From positions 1 to 36,779 of IMG/VR virus record IMGVR_UViG_3300043420_000100: 36,779 bases of DNA, one strand, 5' to 3'. Position 1 is the stretch's first letter. Every line of letters begins with the position of its first letter. The notes under the pieces were generated by a model that made no database searches, was not told the DNA's origin, and saw nothing but the letters and a program-made list of their open reading frames with translations. Below, one piece after another: positions 354 through 31,870 of the stretch. Made by a program: the position numbers and the translations under genes. The stretch is from a virus. Lineage: Duplodnaviria; Caudoviricetes.

Positions 354-3300
354 ATGGCAATCTATCGTGGAGCTGGCGGTACAACTGATACTACCGATCA
401 AGCAACAGTAGACGAAGTAACTACACTGGCCGCTAATGCGGCTTCTTCTGCATCTAGCGCAAGCACATCTGCCTCAAGTGCTGCTACTTCAGCTAGTAAT
501 GCATCAACCTCAGCCACTAATGCAGCAACTTCTGCAACTAATGCAGCGGCAAGCGCGGCTACAGCTTCTAGTGCTAAAAATACTGTGGTATCTGCCGCAG
601 ATGCAGCTACAGTAGCTAAAACAGCAGCAGAACTAGCAGCAGCCAATGCAGATGATGACGCGACTACCGCATTGTCAGCAGCTTCAACAGCTACGTCGGC
701 AGCAACTACGGCTACTAATGCAAGTAATGCAGCTGTTCAGGCTAAAGATCTAACTATTGATGCAGCCTCAAATGTAGCAGCGGACAAAGCAGCAGCAGCG
801 GCTAGTGCCTCTTCAGCGGCTACTTCAGCTACAGCAGCTAATACAGCTAAGTTGGCAGCTGAAGCGGCTCAAGCATCAACTGAAGCTCTATTCAATCAGT
901 TTGGTGATCAATATCTTGGTTCTCACGTAGATGCAGCAGCAGTTGCAGCGTATGCAGCTTCTAATGGTTATACGTTAGATGAAGGTGATGTATACTGGGA
1001 TAGCACAAATAACTCATTGCAGTTTTATACTGGTACTGCGTGGGCTATTCCTGAAGACGTAGCATCAACAGCAGCAGCTAGTGCTACTGCATCTGAAGCG
1101 GCAGCTGCATTGTCTGAAAGTAACGCAGCTGACTCAGCTACTGCAGCGGCAGGCAGCGCATCTACTGCAACTACTAAAGCAAGCGAAGCAGCTACATCTG
1201 CAACTAATGCCGCAGCCTCAGCAACTACTGCTACAACTAAAGCAGGCGAAGCTTCTGCATCTGCAACCTCTGCAGCAGGTAGTGCTACAGCAGCAGCTAG
1301 TTCAGCCTCTGCAGCTTCTTCAAGTGAAACAGCGGCAGCAGCTAGTGAAACAGCAGCGTCTGCAAGCGAAATAGCTGCAGCAGCCTCAGAGGGCGCAGCA
1401 GCAACGTCTGAAACTAATGCAGCAGGTAGTGCTACAGCGGCAGCAGCATCAGCAGCTACAGCTACAACACAGGCATCTATTGCTACTACAAAAGCTAGTG
1501 AAGCATCTACATCTGCTGCGAATGCTGCTACATCTGCAGCTACTGCTACAACTAAAGCTAGTGAAGCATCTACGTCTGCTACTAGTGCAGCAAGCAGTGC
1601 TACAGCAGCAGCTAGTTCAGCCTCTGCAGCCTCTGCAAGCAAAACAGCGGCTGCAGCTAGTGAAACAGCAGCGTCTGCAAGTGAGACTGCAGCAGCAGCT
1701 TCAGAGACTGCCTCTGCAGCGTCTGCAAGCTCAGCTAGTGCATCAGCTACAGCAGCAGCTAGCTCAGCGTCAGCAGCCTCTACGTCGGCTACAACAGCTA
1801 CTACTAAGGCATCAGAAGCAGCGACTAGTGCAAGTAACGCATCAACTAGTGAAACTAACGCAGCTTCTTCGGAATCAGCAGCAGCTATATCTGCCTCTGC
1901 AGCTAGTGCAGCTAAAGACGCGGCTCTTGCAGCTCTTGATTCATTTGATGATCGCTACCTTGGTACTAAGACTTCAGATCCTACGTTAGATAATGATGGT
2001 AATGCGTTGGCATCAGGTGCTCTATACTTCAATACTACAGACGGAGTAATGAAAGTATATGATGGTTCGCAGTGGCTTGCTGCATATGCTGATTTGTCTG
2101 GTGCGTTGATTGCAGCATCTAACCTTTCAGATCTAACTAACGTAGCAGCAGCACGTACTAACCTTGGTTTAGGTACAGCAGCTACTACAGCATCTACTGA
2201 TTATGCAACAGCAGCACAAGGTGCTCTTGCTGATTCAGCATTACAACAAGCAGTAGCTGATACATTGTACATGGATATTAACGCTGTAACTCTTCCTGAT
2301 CAAACAGGACACAGCGGTCAGTTCCTTTCAACAAACGGAACAACTGCTGATTGGGCTACAGTAGATACTTCTCAAGGTGACACTGCTTACTCTTGGGGTG
2401 ATCATGCTTTAGCAGGCTACGCTGATGATACTGCAGTTACATCTGCTCTTGCAGGTAAGCTAGACACTACACATGATATGTCTCTAACTCTGTCTGGTGA
2501 TGTTAGCGGTTCTGCTACATTTACTAACATGGGCAATGCGACACTTTCTGTAACTGTTGCAGATGATAGCCATAATCACACTATTGCTAACGTAGATGGA
2601 TTACAGGCTGCATTGGATGGTAAAGTAGACGATAGTCAAGTACTTACAAATGTTCCTGTAAATGCTGTGTTTACTGATACAGTATATACACACCCTACAT
2701 ATGCAGGAGATGACATTAACCTAGACACTGGTGCATTGTCAGGTGCTACAGTAATTAGTGATTTGGACTTTAACGTAACTACTGACACTCAGGGTCACGT
2801 AACTGATGCTAATGCTACGTACTCTACACGTAACCTAACTTACAGTGATGTAGGTGCAGCAGCTGCTAGTCACTCGCATAGTTACTTACCACTATCTGGC
2901 GGCACTGTTACTGGGGAGATTAAGCTACAAGGGACTGCTCCTCAGTTAAAATTTGAAGATACTGATAATGATGATTATTGGATTCATGTAAACGCTGGTA
3001 AGTTTTTCATACTACCCGATAGAGATAGTAATGGATCTTGGGAAACACCTTATCCTTTAGAAATTACTGCGGATTCAAATTCATTTTTAATCTTTGGGAA
3101 TGAAGCAATTCATGCTGGTAATATAGGTTCACAATCTGTTAACTATGCAGCTTCAGCTGGTAATGCAGATACTCTTGATGGTCAACACGCTAGTGCATTT
3201 CAGCCTGCAGGTAGTTACTTAACAGGTAACCAAACAATTACCCTGACAGGGGATGCAAGTGGTTCAGGTACTACTTCTATTAACGTAACTGTCGCTAATG

Positions 3301-4010
3301 ATAGTCACTCCCATAGTACATCTACGATTTCCGGTCTTGGTGCTTTAGCTACACTCTCTAGCGTCAATGCGAATACAATTGCTGATAACTCAGTAGGAGC
3401 TGCAGAGCTTAACGTATCCGGTAATGGTACTTTGGGACAGATGCTTACGTCAGATGCTGATGGCTCTTTTTCATGGGCTGACGCACCAGAAGGTTTTTCT
3501 CCTGCTTTAGCTTCTATTTCAGAAGAGCAAGTATTTTATTCGTCAGGTACATTTACAGTACCAAACAACGTAAACCATCTTGGTGTTATTGTTATAGGTG
3601 GTGGAGGCGGGGGTTCATTCCACTCAGCTAACTCAGGTACTGGCGGTGGTGGCGGCATCTCTATGGCTATCATTGAGCGTAATGCACTTGGCTCATCTGT
3701 AGCTGTAACAGTAGGTGCTGGTGGTTCTCCAAGCGACTACGATGGTTCAGGTCCAGGAGGACAGTCATCATTTGGCGGTATGCTTGTTGCTAATGGTGGT
3801 AACGGCAACCCATATGGTAATACAAACGGCAAACAAGGTAGCGGAAGTATTAACATCTCTAACCTTAAGTCATATACACCAGCAGGTGGCGGTAGTACTT
3901 ATGTACCTCCATATGATACATGGTCAACTACTTATGGATGGAGTGGAAACCAAGGTTATGGAGGTCGAGGCTCAGTAGGTCAAGCAGGGGTTGTACGAAT
4001 CTGGTATTAA
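354..4010 (+). CDS. Long tail fibre protein
   Basis: 1218 aa. Lambda Stf-like Ala/Ser/Thr heptad repeats, NLSDLTNVAAARTNLGLG motif, HxH motifs, Gly-rich C-terminal domain (VIVIGGGGGG...GVVRIWY). AGGAG RBS upstream. Confidence 0.88.
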   Translation: MAIYRGAGGTTDTTDQATVDEVTTLAANAASSASSASTSASSAATSASNASTSATNAATSATNAAASAATASSAKNTVVSAADAATVAKTAAELAAANADDDATTALSAASTATSAATTATNASNAAVQAKDLTIDAASNVAADKAAAAASASSAATSATAANTAKLAAEAAQASTEALFNQFGDQYLGSHVDAAAVAAYAASNGYTLDEGDVYWDSTNNSLQFYTGTAWAIPEDVASTAAASATASEAAAALSESNAADSATAAAGSASTATTKASEAATSATNAAASATTATTKAGEASASATSAAGSATAAASSASAASSSETAAAASETAASASEIAAAASEGAAATSETNAAGSATAAAASAATATTQASIATTKASEASTSAANAATSAATATTKASEASTSATSAASSATAAASSASAASASKTAAAASETAASASETAAAASETASAASASSASASATAAASSASAASTSATTATTKASEAATSASNASTSETNAASSESAAAISASAASAAKDAALAALDSFDDRYLGTKTSDPTLDNDGNALASGALYFNTTDGVMKVYDGSQWLAAYADLSGALIAASNLSDLTNVAAARTNLGLGTAATTASTDYATAAQGALADSALQQAVADTLYMDINAVTLPDQTGHSGQFLSTNGTTADWATVDTSQGDTAYSWGDHALAGYADDTAVTSALAGKLDTTHDMSLTLSGDVSGSATFTNMGNATLSVTVADDSHNHTIANVDGLQAALDGKVDDSQVLTNVPVNAVFTDTVYTHPTYAGDDINLDTGALSGATVISDLDFNVTTDTQGHVTDANATYSTRNLTYSDVGAAAASHSHSYLPLSGGTVTGEIKLQGTAPQLKFEDTDNDDYWIHVNAGKFFILPDRDSNGSWETPYPLEITADSNSFLIFGNEAIHAGNIGSQSVNYAASAGNADTLDGQHASAFQPAGSYLTGNQTITLTGDASGSGTTSINVTVANDSHSHSTSTISGLGALATLSSVNANTIADNSVGAAELNVSGNGTLGQMLTSDADGSFSWADAPEGFSPALASISEEQVFYSSGTFTVPNNVNHLGVIVIGGGGGGSFHSANSGTGGGGGISMAIIERNALGSSVAVTVGAGGSPSDYDGSGPGGQSSFGGMLVANGGNGNPYGNTNGKQGSGSINISNLKSYTPAGGGSTYVPPYDTWSTTYGWSGNQGYGGRGSVGQAGVVRIWY
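1281..1685 (+). repeat. Intragenic direct repeat in the fibre shaft
   Basis: 35-bp identical block at 1281-1315 and 1596-1630 (offset 315 bp), with similarity continuing about 55 bp further. Confidence 0.85.
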
Positions 4011-4049: not shown

Positions 4050-4595
4050 GTGGAAGTTATAACTTGCGATGATTTTCTAACAGAAGAGCAGAAGGAACAG
4101 ATAGATCAATACTTCAGTAAAGGTGCTCTGTTCCCAATGTTCTTAACTAACCAATGTGTGCGAGGTGATGGTATTCCTAACATGTCGCATACAGTGGTTG
4201 CACGGAAAGACTACGGGCAGGATAAAGTGAGCTTAGAATCTCGTATAGAATCTAGCTCTTTTTATTTCTGGATGTCAGTACTGGAAGCCTTTTTAGATAA
4301 AACAGGTGTGGAAGTTAAAGGTGAGATACTACGTATTGCCGTTAATGGATCATTCGCTGTTCATGTTGAAAGAGGTGTATTTCATACGGACGAACAATCA
4401 GATTACAAACATCTGTTAGTCTATCTTAACGATGACTTTACAGGCACAGGTAGGACAATACTTCAAAATGAAGATGGCACTGAAGAGTACATAGAACCTA
4501 AGAAATTTAGGGGAGCATTCTTTGGTAAATGTCTACATACATTGGAGTATCCGACAAGCGGTATGCGCTTAATTGCAGTATACACATTTAATTAA
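4050..4595 (+). CDS. 2OG-Fe(II) dioxygenase family protein
   Basis: HTD motif, LVYLND strand, distal His (CLHT) and Arg (MRLIAVYTF). Confidence 0.78.
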   Translation: MEVITCDDFLTEEQKEQIDQYFSKGALFPMFLTNQCVRGDGIPNMSHTVVARKDYGQDKVSLESRIESSSFYFWMSVLEAFLDKTGVEVKGEILRIAVNGSFAVHVERGVFHTDEQSDYKHLLVYLNDDFTGTGRTILQNEDGTEEYIEPKKFRGAFFGKCLHTLEYPTSGMRLIAVYTFN

Positions 4596-4605
4596 GGAAA
4601 GTAAG

Positions 4606-5193
4606 ATGAAACCAAGTATTGAGAATTTCATTGGAATTTACGAAGACGCTTTTGATAAAAACTGGTGCGAGGGTGTAATGCACTTTATGGACAAAGCTTA
4701 TGAACTAGGCTATGGCTATAATCGCATTGAGGCTAATGACGCAGATAAACACAATAAAGATGATATGCAGCTTTATGCATGTTCAATACTAAAAGCAGTT
4801 AGTGTATTAGATGCACCTTACTTAGATAAATTCAATGAAGTGTTATGGCATGATTGCTATAAACATTACGCAGATGAATTCTCAGTAATTAAGAACTTAC
4901 CTTTCCATTCTGCATACGGAGTTAAACTGCAGCGTACACCCGTAGGTGGAGGCTATCATGTATGGCATAGTGAGCGTGGAGATGCTGATGCATCGGGACG
5001 TGTCATGGCATTTATTGCATACTTAAATGATGTTGATGAAGGTGGAGAGACGGAGTTTCTTTACCAGCATAAACGCGTTAAGCCTAAACAAGGTACGCTT
5101 GTTCTATTCCCTGCAGGATTTACACATACACATAGAGGCAACCCACCACTCAGTAACACTAAATATATTGTAACTGGATGGATAGAGTTTTAG
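4606..5193 (+). CDS. 2OG-Fe(II) dioxygenase, prolyl-4-hydroxylase-like
   Basis: WHSE, YLNDVDEGGETEF, THRG and KYIVTGW motifs. Start placed at ATG 4606 after AAGGA. Confidence 0.9.
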   Translation: MKPSIENFIGIYEDAFDKNWCEGVMHFMDKAYELGYGYNRIEANDADKHNKDDMQLYACSILKAVSVLDAPYLDKFNEVLWHDCYKHYADEFSVIKNLPFHSAYGVKLQRTPVGGGYHVWHSERGDADASGRVMAFIAYLNDVDEGGETEFLYQHKRVKPKQGTLVLFPAGFTHTHRGNPPLSNTKYIVTGWIEF

Positions 5194-16868: not shown

Positions 16869-17039
16869 TTAGTTCCTCTCGTCGTCGTGATAACGAAGTT
16901 CAATCTTTATATTACCAAAGGCTACGTCTTCACAAGCATCCATGTATCCCTCTTCACGTTCTCGCTTGAGTAGCCACCAGAGTAGACCAGCCTGCACTGC
17001 AAGGATAGCACCAGCAGCTTCGTATGTTAGCTGAATCAA
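16869..17039 (-). CDS. Small membrane protein (56 aa, absent from ORF track)
   Basis: TTG start overlapping the upstream TGA, AAGGAGG RBS; MIQLTYEAAGAILAVQAGLLWWLLKRE...HDDERN. Confidence 0.65.
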   Translation of the reverse strand: MIQLTYEAAGAILAVQAGLLWWLLKREREEGYMDACEDVAFGNIKIELRYHDDERN

Positions 17040-17254
17040 TGCAGCCCCTCCTTATTCATAGGACGTGCTGTGATTAAACTATCGCTGATTAGCATAGTTG
17101 ATGTCTGTAAGAAGATGGTATATTCGTGCATCAGTGCAAGCAGATCAGCTGGATCAACAACTTCCTTGAGTGCGTTAAGGAACTCATCTGCACTCCCTTC
17201 CATAGCACCGTATAGTTCAGTTACTACTACGTCAAAGCTACTGTACTCAGCCAT
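17036..17254 (-). CDS. Hypothetical acidic protein
   Basis: MAEYSSF...EGLH. Start reassigned to ATG 17254 to fit operon packing. Confidence 0.65.
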   Translation of the reverse strand: MAEYSSFDVVVTELYGAMEGSADEFLNALKEVVDPADLLALMHEYTIFLQTSTMLISDSLITARPMNKEGLH

Positions 17255-17429
17255 TGTTATCCCTCTTGTGCTTGTTAATCCAATATCCATAGCCCCATTT
17301 GTTACTAGGGTATGAAGACCACGGTCTACGTATGTTTTTAGTGTGGAATCTAGTGACAAGATACACTGTCTGATAGCGTATAGGTTTGAATGCCCCGCTA
17401 GCACGTAGCTTCCAGTATAGTTTAGACAT
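17247..17429 (-). CDS. Hypothetical basic protein
   Basis: MSKLYW...; overlaps both neighbours by 8 nt. Confidence 0.5.
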   Translation of the reverse strand: MSKLYWKLRASGAFKPIRYQTVYLVTRFHTKNIRRPWSSYPSNKWGYGYWINKHKRDNNG

Positions 17430-17610
17430 GAGTGCAGTCCATCTTGTGTTGACCACCTGTAATTCCGCATTGTGGGCAGATGTCGTACAGTCTGTACATA
17501 CGGTCTATGCCTTCTTGTATACCCGCTTCCCATGCCCACTTAGCCATGTACTCTGGAATCTCTGAGCCAATAGCACCTCTTGTACCTTTAAGCCATTCTT
17601 CAAACGTCAT
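17422..17610 (-). CDS. Hypothetical protein with C-terminal CxxC-H-C zinc site
   Basis: MTFEEW...CPQCGITGGQHKMDC. Confidence 0.65.
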   Translation of the reverse strand: MTFEEWLKGTRGAIGSEIPEYMAKWAWEAGIQEGIDRMYRLYDICPQCGITGGQHKMDCTHV

Positions 17611-17782
17611 CCTTATTCTCCATGTAATCCTTCCATACTTGCTCAGGCGTAACACCAGTAGCACCTGCAACGATAGACCAGAGTATACCTTGCTGTGTCA
17701 TGATGATACGCTCTTCTTCAGTTAGGTCGAAGGTGTACGTAGCACTTCCGTCTTCGTGTTCTACTTCGTCAATTACTTTCAT
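17600..17782 (-). CDS. Hypothetical protein
   Basis: 60-aa ORF with an EHEDGSAT motif. Confidence 0.65.
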   Translation of the reverse strand: MKVIDEVEHEDGSATYTFDLTEEERIIMTQQGILWSIVAGATGVTPEQVWKDYMENKDDV

Positions 17783-17821: not shown

Positions 17822-17989
17822 TTATAGTTTACAAGCTCCGCCTGCACAGCCATCGTCTTCATCAAAGTCTACTTCCAGTAGTTCAAGACGTTCAAGTTCA
17901 TTAGCAATAGCACCCATTAGGATGGGACTACCGTTAGCCTCTTCAAGTGCTTCAAAGATTGTAATCAATTCGTCTTTACTCAGTTCCAC
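17822..17989 (-). CDS. Acidic microprotein with an RNR-alpha-like C-terminal CxxxxC tail (55 aa, absent from ORF track)
   Basis: GTG start after AGAGGG; MELSKDELITIFEALEEANGSPILMGAIANELERLELLEVDFDEDDGCAGGACKL. Fills an otherwise empty operon gap. Confidence 0.7.
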   Translation of the reverse strand: MELSKDELITIFEALEEANGSPILMGAIANELERLELLEVDFDEDDGCAGGACKL

Positions 17990-18140
17990 CAGTCTTTCCC
18001 TCTATCAATACGCTGGCCTGATTAGGCTTCAGCTTCCACTTGCTATATTTTTTACAGTCCGGACAGATCATCCGATCAATAGAAGATAGTAGGATCATAG
18101 ACCCTACGTATCCACAATGTTTACACGTTCTATTCTTCAT
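17976..18140 (-). CDS. Small zinc-ribbon protein
   Basis: CKHC...CPDC. Confidence 0.62.
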   Translation of the reverse strand: MKNRTCKHCGYVGSMILLSSIDRMICPDCKKYSKWKLKPNQASVLIEGKTGGTE

Positions 18141-18432
18141 CTTTAACGAAGACACCATCTACCATCTTACCAGTACGCTGTGCAATAACACCGTATGCTT
18201 CAATCATACAGTTGTAAGCGGACATACCGTTAAGGTAGGCGAGGATCGTTAGGACAACTTGGATGTCACCGATGGCATCAGCGATCTCCTTGTTATCTTT
18301 CTTAGCAATAGCTTCTTCTAGTTCGCTAACCTCTTCGTGAAGTTTAGTTAGCTGGCCTTCGATTGTACCGTTGCGTAGAATGTTACGATCACGTGCCCAG
18401 TTTAGAATTAATGTTTCCATATTATGACTCAC
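18130..18432 (-). CDS. MazG-like NTP pyrophosphohydrolase
   Basis: KLHEEVSEL...EIADAIGDIQV and R.GKMVDGVFVK. Confidence 0.88.
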   Translation of the reverse strand: MSHNMETLILNWARDRNILRNGTIEGQLTKLHEEVSELEEAIAKKDNKEIADAIGDIQVVLTILAYLNGMSAYNCMIEAYGVIAQRTGKMVDGVFVKDEE

Positions 18433-18620
18433 TCCTGCTCTTCCTCTTCGTCGTCTTCCCAGATGTTATCGACTTCTAAATCTTCTTCAATGTAGTCACG
18501 TCGTTCTTCAACTACATCTTCAAAGCGATCAACAATCTGACCGCTGTTAATATTAAGCAGTTCAAGGAGAAGAGTTTCCTCAATCTCCTTTAATCGCTCA
18601 CAAAGTTCTGTGAATGTCAT
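18429..18620 (-). CDS. Hypothetical acidic protein
   Basis: 63 aa, coupled to genes on both sides. Confidence 0.7.
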   Translation of the reverse strand: MTFTELCERLKEIEETLLLELLNINSGQIVDRFEDVVEERRDYIEEDLEVDNIWEDDEEEEQE

Positions 18621-18907
18621 ATGTGATCCAACATCTTAGCCAGATAATGCTGTGCTTTCTCAAGGTCAGTGCGTCCTCCCTTGTCCTGCCAGCGTGACAT
18701 ATACTTTATAATATTTCCCCACAAATAGCCAGTGAACTGTTCTTCAGTCATGATGGCTTCCATGTATTCCCAAGGCTGGATCTCTTTCTGATAGTGATCA
18801 CCGCCAATTTGAGAGTTATTAGGAAAGAACGTAGGGTCAGTGATCAGCGTGTCGAACTCATCCTGATCCATGTATTCATCGGGGTGTTGCTGTTCGTATA
18901 GGTTCAT
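18617..18907 (-). CDS. DUF3310 protein (T7 gp1.7-related)
   Basis: QIGGDHY...GNIIKYMSRW..KGG..DLEKA.HYL. Confidence 0.85.
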   Translation of the reverse strand: MNLYEQQHPDEYMDQDEFDTLITDPTFFPNNSQIGGDHYQKEIQPWEYMEAIMTEEQFTGYLWGNIIKYMSRWQDKGGRTDLEKAQHYLAKMLDHI

Positions 18908-19668
18908 GAGTATTTTCTCCGTAAGTAGTTTAGTGATACAGGAAGCTCGTCAAAGCTACCGTTATTAACTTCATTAAACATCCATATACCAGCCCAGCTA
19001 CCATTGGTTTGCGGAGTTAGGTATCCCTCGTCGTGAGTGTAGAAGATACCAGCAAATAAACCAGTAACATTACTACCATCAGCACGTCGTCCATACGCTA
19101 TGTCCCTGTCCTGTACGTGACCCATGACACAGCTCATCATCTTCTTGCTAAGCATTAGCTTCGCGGAGGAAACAGGTCGTCCCATAACACCACTAGTAAA
19201 ATAGTGACAGTAAACAACCCCATCAATTGTGATAGGCTCAAGAAAGTCATACACTTCCCATCCCATTTCTTCTAGTTGAAGATCTGCGTATCCAATTAAA
19301 CCATCTAGCTTTGCATCGGATTCAATTGCACGTTCAATACGTTGCTCATGGTTGCCCAATGTAAATACTAAACGTGGATTCCAACGCTTACGCTTACCAT
19401 CAATTAGACGTTGCTGCTCTTCACGGATAGGCTCAAGGAATGCTTCCATCCCTGCGATGCCTGCCTTAATGTCGTCAGCGTAACGTCTTCCTTCAAATGA
19501 TTTTTTACCCACGTCGTACACAGATAGTGACGGCATATCCCAATGGTCGCCAAGGTGTACGATGACATCAGGTTTCTTATCAACTGCGTACTGACCAGCC
19601 CACTTAAGGTGCTCGACAGAACCGTTAGGCTTGACCTGAGTATCAGGGATAATTAAATGCTTAATCAT
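18904..19668 (-). CDS. Calcineurin-like metallophosphoesterase
   Basis: DTQ, GDHWD, GNHE, YCH and GHVQ motifs. Confidence 0.88.
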   Translation of the reverse strand: MIKHLIIPDTQVKPNGSVEHLKWAGQYAVDKKPDVIVHLGDHWDMPSLSVYDVGKKSFEGRRYADDIKAGIAGMEAFLEPIREEQQRLIDGKRKRWNPRLVFTLGNHEQRIERAIESDAKLDGLIGYADLQLEEMGWEVYDFLEPITIDGVVYCHYFTSGVMGRPVSSAKLMLSKKMMSCVMGHVQDRDIAYGRRADGSNVTGLFAGIFYTHDEGYLTPQTNGSWAGIWMFNEVNNGSFDELPVSLNYLRRKYS

Positions 19669-21374: not shown

Positions 21375-23021
21375 TTAGTGCGTGTCATACCACGTCTTGC
21401 CGATCTTAGCCTCTGCATCGACAGGTACGCGGAATCCTAATGTCTCACCAGCTAACTTAGCTGCCTTGACCATTAGTTCTGCTGCAAGGTCAGCTTGATC
21501 TTTGCGGACTTCCATCTGTATCTCGTCGTGTACAAATGCAACCTGCTTATAATCAATCTTATTCTTGCGTAGTAATTGATGTGCTTCCACACACCATTGC
21601 TTGGCGATAATACTACCGCACGACTGGAGCAAACTATTAAGTGCAGCATGCTCTGATCGTACAATAATACGTCGCCCATCTAATGCAGGTACGTAGCCCT
21701 TTGCTGCGAACCTCTGCACTTTTACCATCAGCTTACTCAAGGCAGGCATGTTCTTCATGAACCTGTCTATAAGCCTCTTTCCCTGCTGTGAAGATCCACC
21801 CACGATTGACCCAATTTTTGCTGGGCCTGCTCCGTAGAGGAGGGCGTAGATAAACGTCTTAGCTTGATCTCTAGTCTCCAGACCAGCAGCTTGCTGGTTA
21901 GCCGTATGTATATCGCCTTCAAGTAATTCATTTGTGTACCTCTCGTCTTGCATGTAATGTGCCAAGCACCGTAACTCAATGCCTGACAGGTCAGTGCCCA
22001 CTAACTTGTAGCCGTCAGGAGTAGTCCAGCATTGGCGTGACTCCTTACCGTACTCAGATTTAACACTGGTAACTTGGCCGAGGTTAGGGTTGCTGTGTGT
22101 CATTCGCCCAGTAATAGTACCGTTAGAATTAACACGTCCATGTACCCTGCCATCATCCTTGCAGTTGTCCATCCAACTGTCCAGCATACCAACACGTTTC
22201 TGTAGCATCAGGTACTCAGCAATGAGCTGTGCTTCAGGTCTGTTGATAGCCTTAAGTGTAGGCTCATCCACAATGATTGATCCTTTCTCCGTAGTCTTAG
22301 TAAACTCTACACCTAACGACTGTAACCGTGAGGCTATTTGTTTACGTGAGCCCACGTTGAATTCCTCCACCTTATCCTTAAGCTTCTTGCCAGTCTTCTC
22401 TGACCAACGCTCATGGACTAGTGGTGGGAAGATCTCTTGCAGGTGTATCGTGATGTCCATCATACGCTGGCGCATCTCAGCTAACAGGCTAGTGCATAGA
22501 CGTTGGTCTAACATGTAACCGTTACGCTCTTGCTGTGCCATGTACATAGCAACACGATGCTCAAGTTCAAGTGACTGCTCAGGGAATGACCAGCTACTAA
22601 ACTCTTTCACAAGGTGCTTATGTAGCATCTCAAGGACATCTACGTCACGAATACAATACTCAATCATCTCAGGTGTTAAGCCACCATCGAAATCTTCAGT
22701 GTCGAAGTCCATCTTATCAAAGCCAAGACGTTTGCCCCATGCTTTAAGACTATGTCCACCTTCAACTACTGGGTTAAGTAAACGTGACATGACAAGAGTA
22801 TCGAGTGCTTTGTTAACAGGGATCGTGATACCCCATACCTTGCGTAGTACAGGAGCATCAAAGCCTATTAGGTTATGAGCACACACGTAGTCAGCATCAT
22901 CGATCCACTTCTGCAAGCCATCAGGCTTAGTGAATTTATGTGTATGGTTTCCTCGCTTCGCTACGCATAGCCATATGGTATCGTGAGCAAGGTTGGTTTC
23001 AATGTCCAAGTATACAATCAC
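21375..23021 (-). CDS. Family A DNA polymerase with 3'-5' exonuclease (T7 gp5-like)
   Basis: DIET, HNLIGFD, YCIRDV; motif A DLSGIELR, motif B RDQAKTFIYALLYG, motif C VHDE. Confidence 0.97.
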   Translation of the reverse strand: MIVYLDIETNLAHDTIWLCVAKRGNHTHKFTKPDGLQKWIDDADYVCAHNLIGFDAPVLRKVWGITIPVNKALDTLVMSRLLNPVVEGGHSLKAWGKRLGFDKMDFDTEDFDGGLTPEMIEYCIRDVDVLEMLHKHLVKEFSSWSFPEQSLELEHRVAMYMAQQERNGYMLDQRLCTSLLAEMRQRMMDITIHLQEIFPPLVHERWSEKTGKKLKDKVEEFNVGSRKQIASRLQSLGVEFTKTTEKGSIIVDEPTLKAINRPEAQLIAEYLMLQKRVGMLDSWMDNCKDDGRVHGRVNSNGTITGRMTHSNPNLGQVTSVKSEYGKESRQCWTTPDGYKLVGTDLSGIELRCLAHYMQDERYTNELLEGDIHTANQQAAGLETRDQAKTFIYALLYGAGPAKIGSIVGGSSQQGKRLIDRFMKNMPALSKLMVKVQRFAAKGYVPALDGRRIIVRSEHAALNSLLQSCGSIIAKQWCVEAHQLLRKNKIDYKQVAFVHDEIQMEVRKDQADLAAELMVKAAKLAGETLGFRVPVDAEAKIGKTWYDTH

Positions 23022-24622
23022 AGTTCATCCTCATCAGTTCGTTCGAACATCCTACCAGTAACATGATTGAATAACAACCTACCAGCAGGGCCAGTGATGC
23101 CACAGAAGCGGTTCTTTAGAACACGAACGTATGTTGTGTTACGTTCCTCTGGATCTTCGGCTTGTCCGTTACGCTCAAGGCCGAGCACCATGTCACTGAG
23201 CTGGGCGATAGATCCTGAGCCACGCAACTGAGCAAGACTAGTAGCAGCACCTTCTTCATGTCCTTTACCGTCCGGTCGTTTAAGATGTGACACGACAATC
23301 AACGCGACACCTGTTTCTTGAACAAGCATGCGAAGGCGTGTCATGATTTCATCTATCGCTTTACGTTCATCGCCAGATGCCTGAGCACTGACCACGATAC
23401 TAATATGGTCGAGAAATATATAACCGCATCCGAGACCTTTAGCGAGGTACCGAACTCGGTTAATGATATTGTCAACACTAGTACTACCAAAATGATCGAA
23501 CAGATAGAGTCTACCAGTTCCGAGAGTTGCGTGGAATGCATCATCCTTCTCCTGTTGTGTAGCTTCACAGTCAGGTAGGTGAAGCGGTTTGTTTGCAGCT
23601 AGTGACATGATCGATAGGCCAGTCTTCTTCGTGCCTTCCTCAAGGAACAGAGCACCGATACCCTCTTCAGTCTTGTTGAAGATGTGCCATATCATTTCAC
23701 GTAGCACTTGTGATTTACCAAGGCCAGAGCCTGCTGTGATTGTAACCAGCTCACCCTTACGAATGCCGTATGTTAGTTTGTTTAGGCCATTCCAAGGATA
23801 GTCACAGTCACATGGTTGTATCGGTTTCATCACCTCATCGTATAGAGAAGCACCGTTGATGATGCCATCAGGTACATACTGATCAGCATTCCACCATGCA
23901 TCACTGAACTCTTTTCCTTGACTGATACGCTGGTAGTCACATGCATCCTTGTGTCCGGAAGTGTGCTTGAATACTCTAGCCTTTGCACCGAACAATTCTG
24001 ATACTTGGTTGCTAGCTTTAATGCCAGCCTCATCAGCATCGAAACATATGACGATGTTATCAAAGCTAGTTAGCCATTCGTACTCTGCCTTACAATCCTT
24101 CAGTGCACCAGTAGCACCATTACGGATGGACACGACAGGCCACTTGCTACCTAGCATCTGATATGCAGCTAGTGCATCCAGTTCACCCTCAACAACAGTG
24201 ACATATTTACCACCAGCACTGAACAAACTCTGCCCGTATAGACCAGCCGCTTTCCAGTCACCTTGGATAACGAAATCTTTGGATGGCTTGCGTGTCTTCG
24301 TTGCGGTGATCACACCATCCTTAGTAGTGTAACCAAAGATGATGTCCTCTCCGTCTAGGAAACACTTGTATTTCTCACAGGTTTCACGACTGATTCGTCT
24401 GTCGGTAAGTGTGCGATATTGTTTATGCGTCAACATATCAATGACGTTTTCATTTAGCGGAGTCGCTGTCACGATTCTCTCCTTTGGTGTGTAGTCACCA
24501 TCAACTTTCTTTCTGGTTTGGCACACAAAGCATGTGCTCCAGCCTTCGGTGTTAATACTACGGCCATCACTTGAGCCACAGTCTTCACATGGTATATGTT
24601 GAGCTATCCATTCACTCATCAC
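23018..24622 (-). CDS. Primase-helicase (T7 gp4-like)
   Basis: CEDC...CFVC zinc finger, TOPRIM (VEGELD, FDAD), Walker A GSGLGKS, LRGSG and KNR. Confidence 0.97.
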   Translation of the reverse strand: MMSEWIAQHIPCEDCGSSDGRSINTEGWSTCFVCQTRKKVDGDYTPKERIVTATPLNENVIDMLTHKQYRTLTDRRISRETCEKYKCFLDGEDIIFGYTTKDGVITATKTRKPSKDFVIQGDWKAAGLYGQSLFSAGGKYVTVVEGELDALAAYQMLGSKWPVVSIRNGATGALKDCKAEYEWLTSFDNIVICFDADEAGIKASNQVSELFGAKARVFKHTSGHKDACDYQRISQGKEFSDAWWNADQYVPDGIINGASLYDEVMKPIQPCDCDYPWNGLNKLTYGIRKGELVTITAGSGLGKSQVLREMIWHIFNKTEEGIGALFLEEGTKKTGLSIMSLAANKPLHLPDCEATQQEKDDAFHATLGTGRLYLFDHFGSTSVDNIINRVRYLAKGLGCGYIFLDHISIVVSAQASGDERKAIDEIMTRLRMLVQETGVALIVVSHLKRPDGKGHEEGAATSLAQLRGSGSIAQLSDMVLGLERNGQAEDPEERNTTYVRVLKNRFCGITGPAGRLLFNHVTGRMFERTDEDEL

Positions 24623-29293: not shown

Positions 29294-29515
29294 TTTGACG
29301 TTCTCCATTGTAAGGTCAATATGATGCATTGTTGCACCCAGAAAGCCCCTCTACATACCTTGGGAAGGGCTTTGAAGTTGCATCCGTTGCAATCCGTTTC
29401 ACTTCTTTATAGTGGTCAGTTTAGGTGTCATCTATCCCCCTTGGTAGGATAAAGCCGCACCATATTCACCCACTACTCGCAATTGTAGCTTGTCAGGCCT
29501 TGCAAGATTTCCCAT

Positions 29516-29529
29516 ATTGTTAAAGAGCG
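29516..29529 (-). promoter_or_regulatory. boxA antitermination element (downstream copy)
   Basis: CGCTCTTTAACAAT on the minus strand. Confidence 0.8.
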
Positions 29530-29717
29530 TCGCTCCAATCTAACCCCGAATGAAAACCTTTTGAACGCAGATCAACCGAAAACCCAGAGGGAGCAACCAA
29601 GGTTGCTATGCTATAGGGAGGCCAGCTTCACTAGACTTACATCATCCAATAATCAGCTCCGAATCAAGCGCGTCAAAGTCCCATAGGGCGAGCACAAGCT
29701 TCAGCTTTGGAGGTCAG

Positions 29718-29731
29718 ATTGTTAAAGAGCG
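29718..29731 (-). promoter_or_regulatory. boxA antitermination element (upstream copy)
   Basis: Identical CGCTCTTTAACAAT, 23 nt downstream of a predicted -10. Confidence 0.8.
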
Positions 29732-29754
29732 GTATCAATCACTTGATGTTGCAC

Positions 29755-29783
29755 AGGTTAATTCCTATCGAATCACTTGTCTA
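29755..29783 (-). promoter_or_regulatory. Early sigma70-type promoter
   Basis: TAGACA-17 bp-TAACCT on the minus strand. Confidence 0.62.
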
Positions 29784-30119
29784 ATACCGATTCCTCATAA
29801 GCATATAACTTTTTTGCATAAGTCTTTTTTATATATGTAGACAGTCTGATCTTGACCTATAGAACTACGTATCAATTGTCAATCCCCTCACATAGAACCA
29901 TTTGGAATAACATATAACCATTTGTTTGGTACTTCTCTCTAGCCCAGTAAAACCGTTTAAGGCCTACCTACCGCCCAGAGCTAAAACGTCTCTACGGGGC
30001 TATTTGAGGCCTTCTCGAGCTTAGACTGTTTTGTTCTATCAACTGGGGATTCTTATAACCGTTTGTCCTTACTGTATAGATGTACAGTATTGATACCTGT
30101 ATCGTCGCTCCGCTCCTAG

Positions 30120-30164
30120 CTTCACATAACTTCACACTCACTTCACATTCACTTCATTGTGAAC
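30120..30164 (+). repeat. Short tandem repeat array
   Basis: CTTCACATAA-CTTCACACTCA-CTTCACATTCA-CTTCATTG. Confidence 0.8.
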
Positions 30165-30398
30165 TGGGTGCGAAGGTTTCATGTAGTATAGGGTGCTTAC
30201 TGTATACATATACATTGCTGTATAGAACACTGTATAATATTAATGTAGCACTTTAACTTCATTGTCAGTGTGTACTAACTAACTTATCAGCGCGTAGTCA
30301 CTGGGGAGGGTACTGGGTAGGGGCGGGGGAGGGGGCTAAGGGTGTGCAGGTAGTGGTGCTCCTTCTCAGACACAAAAAAGAGGTAAAATAGACCACTA

Positions 30399-30417
30399 AA
30401 TAAGAATGATTCTCATT
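30399..30417. promoter_or_regulatory. Fur-box-like 9-1-9 palindrome
   Basis: AATAAGAAT-G-ATTCTCATT; 15/18 match to AATGATAAT-N-ATTATCATT. Confidence 0.5.
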
Positions 30418-30532
30418 AGCTATAAAGCTCAATAAGCCCTTGAAAACTAAAAAGAACTGCGGAGTAAGGGGCTCACTACCCAGACCCGCCAGTAAAGCTA
30501 ATTAAAGGCAGGGGAATTAGACTAGAAAGTAC

Positions 30533-30561
30533 TTGACAAATTAGTAAAAGTATGCTAGTAT
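30533..30561 (+). promoter_or_regulatory. Sigma70-type promoter for the packaging/structural arm
   Basis: TTGACA-17 bp-TAGTAT with TGn. Confidence 0.78.
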
Positions 30562-30669
30562 TAGACATACTATGTAGGAAAACAAGAAGACAACGCGATT
30601 CACATTATCATCCATCGAATAACCCTCTTGTCTTGAACTACATTGTTCTCTAAATAGTAGATAAAGAAC

Positions 30670-31059
30670 ATGACAGAAGAAGTTAAACGTAGACGTGGTC
30701 GTCCCCCTAAGACTGATGTCTTGGAAAATAAGAAAGGTAATCGCGTAGCTAGAGGTAGACCTAAAGGCGACGCTGCTATTATTAATGAATACAAAGCACG
30801 TATGCTTGCGTCACCTAAAAGTGCTAAGGTCTTGGAAAAGATCTTTGAAGCTGCCTTAGATGATGAGCATAAACATCAAGCAGCTGCGTGGAAAATAATT
30901 ACTGATCGCGTTGTTCCTACTGCAGCCTTCGAGAAGGATGTCGTGAAGGGAGCAGGGCGTAATGCTATACAGATTAATATTACTGGCGTTGGTGGTGAGA
31001 CTACTATCATCGGAGGCGATGACGATGCCATTGACGGAGAATACACAGATGTCGATTGA
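30670..31059 (+). CDS. terS: Terminase small subunit
   Basis: Two RGRP motifs, helical core and IQINITG tail; first gene of the arm, upstream of terL. Confidence 0.7.
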   Translation: MTEEVKRRRGRPPKTDVLENKKGNRVARGRPKGDAAIINEYKARMLASPKSAKVLEKIFEAALDDEHKHQAAAWKIITDRVVPTAAFEKDVVKGAGRNAIQINITGVGGETTIIGGDDDAIDGEYTDVD

Positions 31060-31870
31060 TAGCGATATTAAAAGTGCTTTACTGAGCTTAGAAGATACAG
31101 TTACTTCAGGCTACGTACCTACAAAAATAGTTAAAGATAAGAATGGCACTAAGAAAAAAGTAGCTATCGGTAAGTCTGGTGTTACTATTGCTAAAGGCTT
31201 TGACCTTGGGCAGCACAGCACTAAAGATTTATTCCGTTTGGGTATCCCACCTGATACGCTTGTAAAGTTAGTTCCTTATATGGAAAAGAAAGGAGCTGAC
31301 GCACAGAAAGCTCTTAACACTCAGCCATTAAACATCTCTGAAGATGAGATGAATACTATTAATGATTTGGTATACGCTGATCAAAAAGCTAAAGCAATTA
31401 AAGCATACGAAGATAATACTGGTTTTGCTTGGGATAACGTACCAGAAAACGTACAAGCTGGTTTAATCATCCAAGGCTTTAACATGGGTGAGGGTCTTTA
31501 CAAGAATAAAGGTAAAGAGACTAACTTCACTAAACAGTTACGTGAAGCAGCAATGAATGATGATTACGAAGCTGCTGCTCAGAACATGGCGAACTGGAAT
31601 CCATCATGGACACAGGGCGGTAATGATGGATTACTTAAACGTGCAAAAGCTGCTGCTGATGTAATGCTAGGTAATACAGCAGTTGCTGATATGGGTACAC
31701 GTGCTGACTATTATTTAGATGAGATGCGTAGTGGAAACGTAGCACGTAACTACAAACCAACAGCTCCAGCTCAGCCTGTACAAACTGAACAAGTTGTATC
31801 AGCAGATGAACTAAATGGTAGTAAGTCTTGGTATGACGATATGTTTAACACGCTTAAGGGTATGTTTTGA
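31049..31870 (+). CDS. Pesticin-like (T4 lysozyme fold) muramidase
   Basis: LE....GYVP...SGVTIAKGFDLGQ signature; GGAG RBS before ATG 31049. Confidence 0.78.
   Translation: MSIDSDIKSALLSLEDTVTSGYVPTKIVKDKNGTKKKVAIGKSGVTIAKGFDLGQHSTKDLFRLGIPPDTLVKLVPYMEKKGADAQKALNTQPLNISEDEMNTINDLVYADQKAKAIKAYEDNTGFAWDNVPENVQAGLIIQGFNMGEGLYKNKGKETNFTKQLREAAMNDDYEAAAQNMANWNPSWTQGGNDGLLKRAKAAADVMLGNTAVADMGTRADYYLDEMRSGNVARNYKPTAPAQPVQTEQVVSADELNGSKSWYDDMFNTLKGMF

Follow-up and report, generated by a model that had tools for sequence, protein, structure and literature searches.

On the minus strand of this phage genome, at 17822-17989, lies a 55-codon open reading frame (ORF) with a GTG start and a TAA stop, whose product ends in FDEDDGCAGGACKL directly before the stop codon. 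The window, by which we mean the whole stretch of 36,779 bases that was analysed, is 100% complete according to CheckV; it starts within the major capsid gene, its last ORF, as read, ends within the same gene, and a search of the 36,779-base record for a terminal repeat found none. A preliminary description had reported a 55-aa ORF with the redox tail of ribonucleotide reductase (RNR) at its end, placed just downstream of the MazG, DUF3310 and phosphoesterase genes, and both statements were borne out. The ORF stands last in a same-strand run whose order is primase/helicase, family A polymerase, exonuclease, HNH, metallophosphoesterase, DUF3310, MazG-like pyrophosphatase, zinc-ribbon-like ORF and tail ORF. 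The features of this region are as follows.

17822..17989, minus strand: gene for an acidic microprotein of 55 aa, GTG start, TAA stop, with 15 D+E and 3 K+R residues
17825..17857, minus strand: NrdA-type redox tail DDGCAGGACKL, residues 45-55, the same as the end of 73 NrdA sequences; predicted to be disordered
17846-17848 and 17831-17833, minus strand: Cys48 and Cys53, respectively, the cysteine pair of the redox tail
17873..17977, minus strand: helical hairpin predicted by AlphaFold2, helices 5-17 and 22-39, without a match to NrdA
17998..18002, minus strand: ribosome-binding-like motif GAGGG, read from the sequence, ending 8 nt before the GTG of the tail ORF
17976..18158, minus strand: zinc-ribbon-like 60-aa ORF upstream of the tail ORF, with a 14-nt overlap; below the Pfam cut-off
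18130..18432, minus strand: MazG-like nucleotide pyrophosphatase, a neighbour of the tail ORF
18617..18907, minus strand: DUF3310 protein (PHROG label: nucleotide kinase), a neighbour of the tail ORF
18904..19668, minus strand: metallophosphoesterase, a neighbour of the tail ORF
21375..24622, minus strand: family A DNA polymerase and primase/helicase, among the first genes of the run that holds the tail ORF

Relatives carry purine-rich motifs at the position equivalent to GAGGG, and in close relatives a zinc-ribbon-like ORF adjoins the tail ORF there too. A promoter scan returned 9 candidates against 9.2 in shuffled sequences, i.e. no excess. In one RNA run (X14), contigs of related sequences cover the bins of the tail ORF, but such contigs cannot show transcription. 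Downstream of the tail gene, at 17036-17782, are short ORFs that are conserved in relatives but shuffled in order; the 167-aa call at 17036-17539 seems to be a spurious 5' part joined to a real gene of ~72-84 aa. Elsewhere in the window, a 1218-aa tail-fibre-like gene (354-4010) directly follows the major capsid gene and is itself followed by two 2OG-Fe(II) oxygenase-like genes (4050-4595 and 4573-5193). A 302-aa ORF with a pesticin-type lysozyme domain, probably the endolysin, lies just upstream of the large terminase gene (30962-31870), and the ~1.3 kb that separate the diverging gene arms and lack long ORFs (29330-30669) are probably a control region or the genome ends.

In the AlphaFold2 model of the peptide, residues 1-40, which hold both helices, have pLDDT values of 93-98, while beyond residue 39 there is no secondary structure and pLDDT falls to 50-62. 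As in NrdA, the tail is predicted to be flexible and is preceded by acidic residues, here the run DFDEDD. A fold search with the hairpin in a viral library gave nothing at E<=0.001, a search of the ESM Atlas gave unnamed clusters only, and the sole match in a PDB profile search, the end of Neisseria gonorrhoeae NrdA, was not significant (E 0.054). Pfam and NCBIfam gave no hit for the peptide, and since the model is a helical hairpin, it is not a thioredoxin fold with a CxxC motif. Prediction of a complex between the peptide and residues 1-736 of Thiomicrorhabdus NrdA scored 0.02, which gives no answer. Speculatively, the hairpin may be a stabilising or docking module.

The preliminary description saw no nrdA, nrdJ or trx in the genome, and this stands in a record that CheckV regards as complete: PF02867 (the RNR large subunit), glutaredoxin, thioredoxin and NrdD were all looked for in the 36,779-base record and none was found, and RNR families gave 0 hits among the 57 ORFs scanned. 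A split RNR, with a cognate tail-less large subunit encoded in the same genome, is not what we see, as the phage has no large subunit of any kind. Given that the phage lacks RNR, thioredoxin and glutaredoxin, any partner of the peptide must be a host protein.

The tail and its gene family

E. coli NrdA ends in DDGCESGACKI, as had been correctly stated, and the end of the phage peptide follows the same plan: a Cys pair with the spacing C-x4-C lies within the last 8 residues and is followed by K-[I/L]-stop, as in the tails of class Ia NrdA. Across GTDB, DDGCAGGACKL directly followed by a stop occurs at 74 loci, 73 of which are NrdA ends (mostly from Thiomicrospiraceae, Moraxella and Psychrobacter) and one a member of the peptide's own family on a 906-base MAG contig. 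The long ORFs carrying this tail end like class Ia NrdA. Judged by its sequence, the tail of the 55-aa peptide is of the class Ia type.

All 35 candidates in a protein search match, one of them being the phage's own protein, which gives 34 homologues of 48-56 aa that are 55-89% identical. G47-C48-A-G-G-A and K54-L55 are invariant among the 35 family sequences, and C53 is present in 34 of them. Conservation of the Cys pair among homologues, which had been suggested as a check, is thus found, with both cysteines in 34/35. Selection was measured on 12 genes, namely the tail ORF of the phage and those of 11 loci; L001 (identical), L009 (a protein duplicate of L008), and L010 and L011 (one-codon insertion) were left out. 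In this set, pN/pS is 0.037 for the last 11 codons versus 0.35 for codons 2-41, with pS ~0.64 in both, and the stop codon varies between TAA, TAG and TGA yet always comes directly after the final L. Our conclusion is that the tail and the position of the stop are under strong purifying selection, and that the identity of 11 residues with NrdA, the 34 homologues and the purifying selection are beyond chance. It is important to note that the bare pattern C-x4-C-x2-stop, which had been proposed for searching phage genomes, is uninformative and too common to count as evidence, because it occurs 17 times over the six frames of the 36,779-base sequence.

Out of 1.84 billion representatives, a profile search picked 11, five of which are distant members that share the hairpin pattern and whose tails include DDCAGGACKL, DDCAGGGCKL and NDCGDACKL. 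Two other short matches, P0039 and P0045 (possibly frameshifted reads), have the hairpin without the tail. The 55-aa peptide found no match by tblastn in 50,697 GenBank phages. A search through 7,993 candidates for longer or fused forms yielded one 99-aa protein, and a lone sequence is weak evidence either way.

The preliminary description allowed, as an alternative, that the ORF is a deletion remnant of an RNR gene. That it is a remnant of a phage nrdA, or an ORF that is not translated, we consider nearly excluded. It is true that the 3' end of an nrdA gene is the probable origin of the last 11 codons, and that these are about the sole DNA similarity of this half of the phage to Thiomicrospiraceae genomes. 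However, only the last 11-15 residues of the ORF align with NrdA. Residues 1-44 have no NrdA match and show merely scattered identity against 72 NrdA ends (picked by the shared last 11 residues), and neither a PF02867 barrel nor a YYxNTRDG segment was found before the tail in the 55-aa ORF. The viral loci found with the peptide number 42, comprising 15 full-length family members, 24 NrdA ends and 3 instances of another short ORF; at 15 of 15 related loci the same short ORF is present and nrdA is missing, and tblastn hits with NrdA, both at these 15 loci and in the phage itself, are confined to the last 12-15 residues of the ORF. Furthermore, the hairpin part and the tail are both under purifying selection, and the phages that carry a gene of the hairpin family have replication modules of at least two kinds. 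Because the relatives have no RNR at the locus, the alignment is limited to the end and the Cys pair is kept in 34/35, the remnant explanation fails. What the preliminary description took to be a free-standing RNR redox tail in a phage without RNR is upheld by the family, by the selection acting on it and by the absence of RNR.

Free tails in other phages and in bacterial chromosomes

The DNA pattern G-C-x-x-G-A-C-K-[L/I/F]-stop matches at least 119 viral loci, with about 150 estimated. Sorted by type, the 119 viral matches listed comprise 73 ends of NrdA-like ORFs, 45 closed short ORFs and 1 match truncated too early to be assigned. The 45 short ORFs among these listed matches fall by single linkage into six N-terminal groups, of 18, 11, 7, 5, 3 and 1, and the YY motif is found in none of the 45. 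Every short tail ORF examined is strongly acidic. Mimicry of the NrdB tail by the acidic N-termini was considered as well, but a comparison of 5 peptides with the last 16 residues of 17 NrdB proteins spoke against it, 29-95 of 300 shuffles reaching the observed score.

Carriers of free tails include SPN3US-type jumbo phages as well as Alexandravirus-type Erwinia and Dickeya phages, and a related protein matched 77 GenBank phage records, among them SPN3US (gp234), SPAsTU and CR5. Such proteins are contained in PHROG 14561, 24014 and 38753, which have no function annotated. The tail gene of SPAsTU and CR5 lies between thyA (upstream) and a MazG gene (downstream), and MazG is also its neighbour in the present phage, L004 and L014. 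dCMP deaminase is near the tail genes of L280 and L281, with thyA also in L280; dNMP kinase and thyA are near that of L035; other neighbours include polymerases and exonucleases. At L278 and L279, no nucleotide-metabolism neighbour was found. In G039, a complete 41.7-kb phage without RNR, an 80-aa ORF located between primase/helicase and DNA polymerase (L275:5930-6172) has the same tail behind an N-terminal part that is unrelated. SPN3US gp234 itself (L320:2501-2689) is a 62-aa member that ends in CTGGACKI.

PF02867 is missing from 41/41 carrier records and was found in 5/5 controls, in which the motif is an NrdA end; the 41 are not independent, as they include many closely related records, and one of them (G025) comes from a Neisseria chromosome. 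In terms of completeness, 21 of the 41 records reach 90% or more and a further 2 are GenBank genomes, and only 9 of the 41 belong to the hairpin family, 1 of these being at least 90% complete. No glutaredoxin, thioredoxin or NrdD was found in 23/23 carriers.

The record that holds L277:6164-6292 (G025) was filed as viral and is a stretch of Neisseria chromosome, in the order iscR, iscS, 42-aa free tail, iscU, iscA, hscB, gyrA. The cluster of this peptide has 210 members, and among 40 of these, 13 are named, as Neisseria hypothetical proteins. For N. gonorrhoeae, PMC3032703 describes an isc operon whose transcript spans iscR to hesB, together with a gene, NGO0635, that by its numbering lies between iscS and iscU and that goes ~4-fold down without oxygen and 4.2-fold up on iron depletion; peroxide induces iscS and iscU (PMC3032703). 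Going by position only, NGO0635 is probably the Neisseria free-tail copy.

The family of Moraxella catarrhalis has the motif in 88 of 251 genomes, with two occurrences in 23. Thirty loci from this family comprise 18 NrdA ends and 12 short free tails, the genes for which encode ~45-50 aa (L286:1387-1530, L293-L314); 7 of the 12 come after aroE, 3 are near a gene for an Rrf2-family regulator and 2 are elsewhere. In all five free-tail genomes of the family that were checked, NrdA keeps its own tail, and in three of these the NrdA tail has drifted more from the consensus than has the free copy. Most of the free tails have CEGGACK where NrdA has CAGGACK. The copies from Neisseria and Moraxella belong to an acidic G-V-D group, and what they share with the hairpin family is the tail.

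The host of the present phage is likely to be a gammaproteobacterium with this type of NrdA. Within Thiomicrospiraceae, the tail motif occurs in 83 of 99 genomes, nearly always once. The tail type is restricted, since a stricter pattern matched only 4 of 401 genomes in an even class-level sample. We found no CRISPR-spacer-like or prophage matches in 98 and 99 Thiomicrospiraceae genomes, a weak result given that 3 candidates were scored per genome, and no close cultured relative for the polymerase or the terminase (best 46% and 38-47%, respectively). The sequencing run that best contains the phage is a freshwater metagenome, which may be where it comes from. Identity of the tail is a weak guide to the host, because the free tails of jumbo phages and Moraxella differ from the NrdA tails seen.

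Possible roles of the free tail

In class I RNR, a cysteine pair in the alpha tail re-reduces the active-site disulfide, and the tail is itself reduced by thioredoxin, glutaredoxin or NrdH, as set out in PMC11903788, PMC6187632, PMC3483043 and PMC9669993. With the Cys pair, the acidic run and the exact C-terminal position all kept, the phage peptide should therefore meet the same partners. By analogy with this known chemistry, we tentatively suggest, with confidence that falls a little short of even, that the peptide may be an electron shuttle that works in trans, taking electrons from the host's thioredoxin or glutaredoxin and delivering them to the host's NrdA. Host thioredoxin or glutaredoxin would reduce Cys48 and Cys53, the tail with its free K-L end would enter the oxidised active site of host NrdA, and the catalytic disulfide would be re-reduced by the peptide as it is by NrdA's own tail. 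The outcome would be that dNTP output is sustained in phage replication or under oxidative or iron stress.

We rank this explanation first because both cysteines are kept, the neighbouring genes favour dNTP supply and bacteria keep chromosomal copies. Two kept cysteines would fit dithiol/disulfide cycling better than they would an inert decoy or a one-cysteine trap, and the presence of chromosomal free copies beside a tailed NrdA argues against a plain toxic inhibitor. The tail of yeast R1 is reportedly able to serve a neighbouring subunit. Nevertheless, several points count against electron delivery in trans. Bacteria with this tail type keep the tail on NrdA, and as NrdA of this type is already equipped with a tail of its own, it is hard to see what a free copy would add. 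The free tails are not simple copies of a host tail, to judge by CTGGACKI in SPN3US gp234 versus CESGACKI in E. coli NrdA, which stands in here for the Salmonella tail, and by CEGGACK versus CAGGACK in the Moraxella family; and some carriers, such as L278 and L279, are without a nucleotide-metabolism neighbour. According to PMC11903788, tail and substrate are mutually exclusive in the pocket, and the step named there as slow in class I turnover is a conformational one. Finally, a separately expressed class II cysteine-rich domain (CRD) is described in PMC5704485 as having failed to restore TCEP-driven activity, with the caveat that this CRD was poorly soluble and that the data are not displayed in that paper.

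Instead of serving the host class Ia RNR, the peptide could restrain it, the tail filling the substrate pocket or the alpha-tail site on beta and the hairpin adding affinity. A phage might use such a brake to spare ribonucleotides or to dodge dNTP-triggered defences, living on recycled host DNA, and a bacterium might use it to slow down an iron-dependent enzyme during iron shortage. That tail and substrate compete for one pocket, and that the alpha tail is also able to bind beta (both from PMC11903788), would be in keeping with this, as would the invariant K-[L/I]-stop, which suits pocket binding, and the possession by the phage of nucleases, MazG and a DUF3310 protein for salvage. NGO0635, the probable Neisseria copy by position only, goes 4.2-fold up on iron depletion (PMC3032703). 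We nonetheless think inhibition unlikely, given that the strong selection acts on both cysteines, which a steric blocker does not need, and that thyA, dCMP deaminase or dNMP kinase near the genes of several carriers points to more dNTP rather than less. Distinctly unlikely, in our judgement, is that the target is a redoxin, with the tail baiting or draining thioredoxin or glutaredoxin, recruiting the redoxin to a phage process, or buffering oxidative stress as a dithiol. The tail is a natural thioredoxin and glutaredoxin substrate (PMC11903788, PMC6187632), and peroxide induces both of the genes that border the Neisseria copy, iscS and iscU (PMC3032703). The carriers encode no redoxin of their own (23/23). 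As an isolated peptide of 25 residues, the NrdA tail has a solved structure in the PDB (chain 1qfn_B), presumably with Grx1 as its partner. Redoxins take many dithiol substrates, however, and a redoxin bait should not need so exact a GGACK[L/I]-stop, kept in unrelated families. The T7-type family A polymerase uses thioredoxin, but this is no evident common need of phages so different.

We regard as improbable a role for the acidic two-cysteine peptide in handling iron or Fe-S clusters, e.g. in upkeep of the NrdB diiron cofactor, as opposed to re-reduction of the active site. Such a role would account for the location of the Neisseria copy between iscS and iscU, for the Rrf2-family regulator gene near 3 of the 12 Moraxella-family copies and for the strong acidity of all versions. 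It sits badly with the other 9 of these 12, which adjoin aroE or unrelated genes, with the phage carriers examined, none of which has isc genes near the tail gene, and with the sequence identity, which is specifically to the end of NrdA.

Known systems and wider meaning

The part itself, an RNR redox tail, is known, and among the systems we compared, the only precedent for its separate encoding would appear to be class II NrdJb. The class Ia alpha tail (E. coli NrdA, C754/C759; N. gonorrhoeae 7MDI, ending in QDDGCAGGACKI) is alike in having C-x4-C-K-[L/I]-stop after an acidic linker, and 11 of 11 terminal residues of the peptide are identical with those of Thiomicrospiraceae and Moraxella NrdA. 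Unlike class Ia alpha, the peptide is encoded by a free 55-aa gene, has a predicted hairpin instead of the catalytic barrel and belongs to a phage without RNR. NrdJb (P. aeruginosa NrdJa+b) resembles it in that a reductant-relay part of RNR has become a gene of its own; as described in PMC5704485, NrdJb is a folded cysteine-rich domain of 150-220 aa that completes its tail-less partner, whereas the peptide bears an 11-residue class Ia tail and has no cognate enzyme in the genome. A further comparison is with yeast Sml1 and the R2 C-terminal peptides (PMC3483043), which are also small and target the RNR large subunit. Unlike the R2 peptides, the free tails show no likeness to NrdB C-termini that we could find. 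Both Sml1 and the R2 peptides act without redox chemistry. T7 gp1.2, said to be a phage inhibitor of host dGTPase, is comparable in that it is small, phage-encoded and directed at a nucleotide enzyme of the host, but it has another target, no copied part of the host enzyme and no redox role.

The proteins of PHROG 14561, 24014 and 38753, including the SPN3US gp234 type, have the same terminal motif and come from carriers without RNR. The match to PHROG 14561 is limited to residues 44-55 of the peptide (E 4e-4) and does not extend over its full length, and the SPN3US gp234 type, which has an acidic G-V-D linker where the peptide has the hairpin, forms a separate N-terminal group. In the main text of the openly available papers searched, we found none that reports a free class Ia tail, whether from a phage or from a bacterium.

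It is possible, though we hold the view with some doubt, that free NrdA-tail microproteins make up an unrecognised layer of class Ia RNR control in bacteria and phages alike. Were this so, Neisseria, with the copy inside its IscR-headed isc operon, and Moraxella would use free tails to adjust RNR, or to restore its function, during iron and oxidative stress, and phages from 37 to ~270 kb would have made versions of their own from several scaffolds that are unrelated, of which the hairpin family is one, driving the host enzyme in place of carrying a 2.3-kb nrdA. The free tail would be a trans-acting redox arm for an already-tailed class Ia RNR, a case that no paper we found describes, and hypothetical genes in SPN3US (gp234) and in the Neisseria isc operon would gain a function. 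RNR is the sole de novo route to dNTPs and a drug target. The sharing of its active site by the tail, the beta subunit and redoxins is still being worked out (PMC11903788), and with a natural free tail one could readily ask if re-reduction is possible in trans and if it sets a limit to dNTP supply. If the peptide does shuttle electrons, it would be a minimal auxiliary metabolic gene, of 168 bases instead of a reductase operon; if it is an inhibitor instead, it would be a natural peptide lead against bacterial RNR.

Two minor observations concern nrdA genes that carry this tail. At L016, L017, L029, L038 and L167-L170, several such genes of phages seem to be interrupted by inteins or introns, the signs of which are split PF02867 matches and a 1560-aa frame. 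In one genome (L250-L251, G049:C17) there are two nrdA genes, with the tail motif at the end of each.
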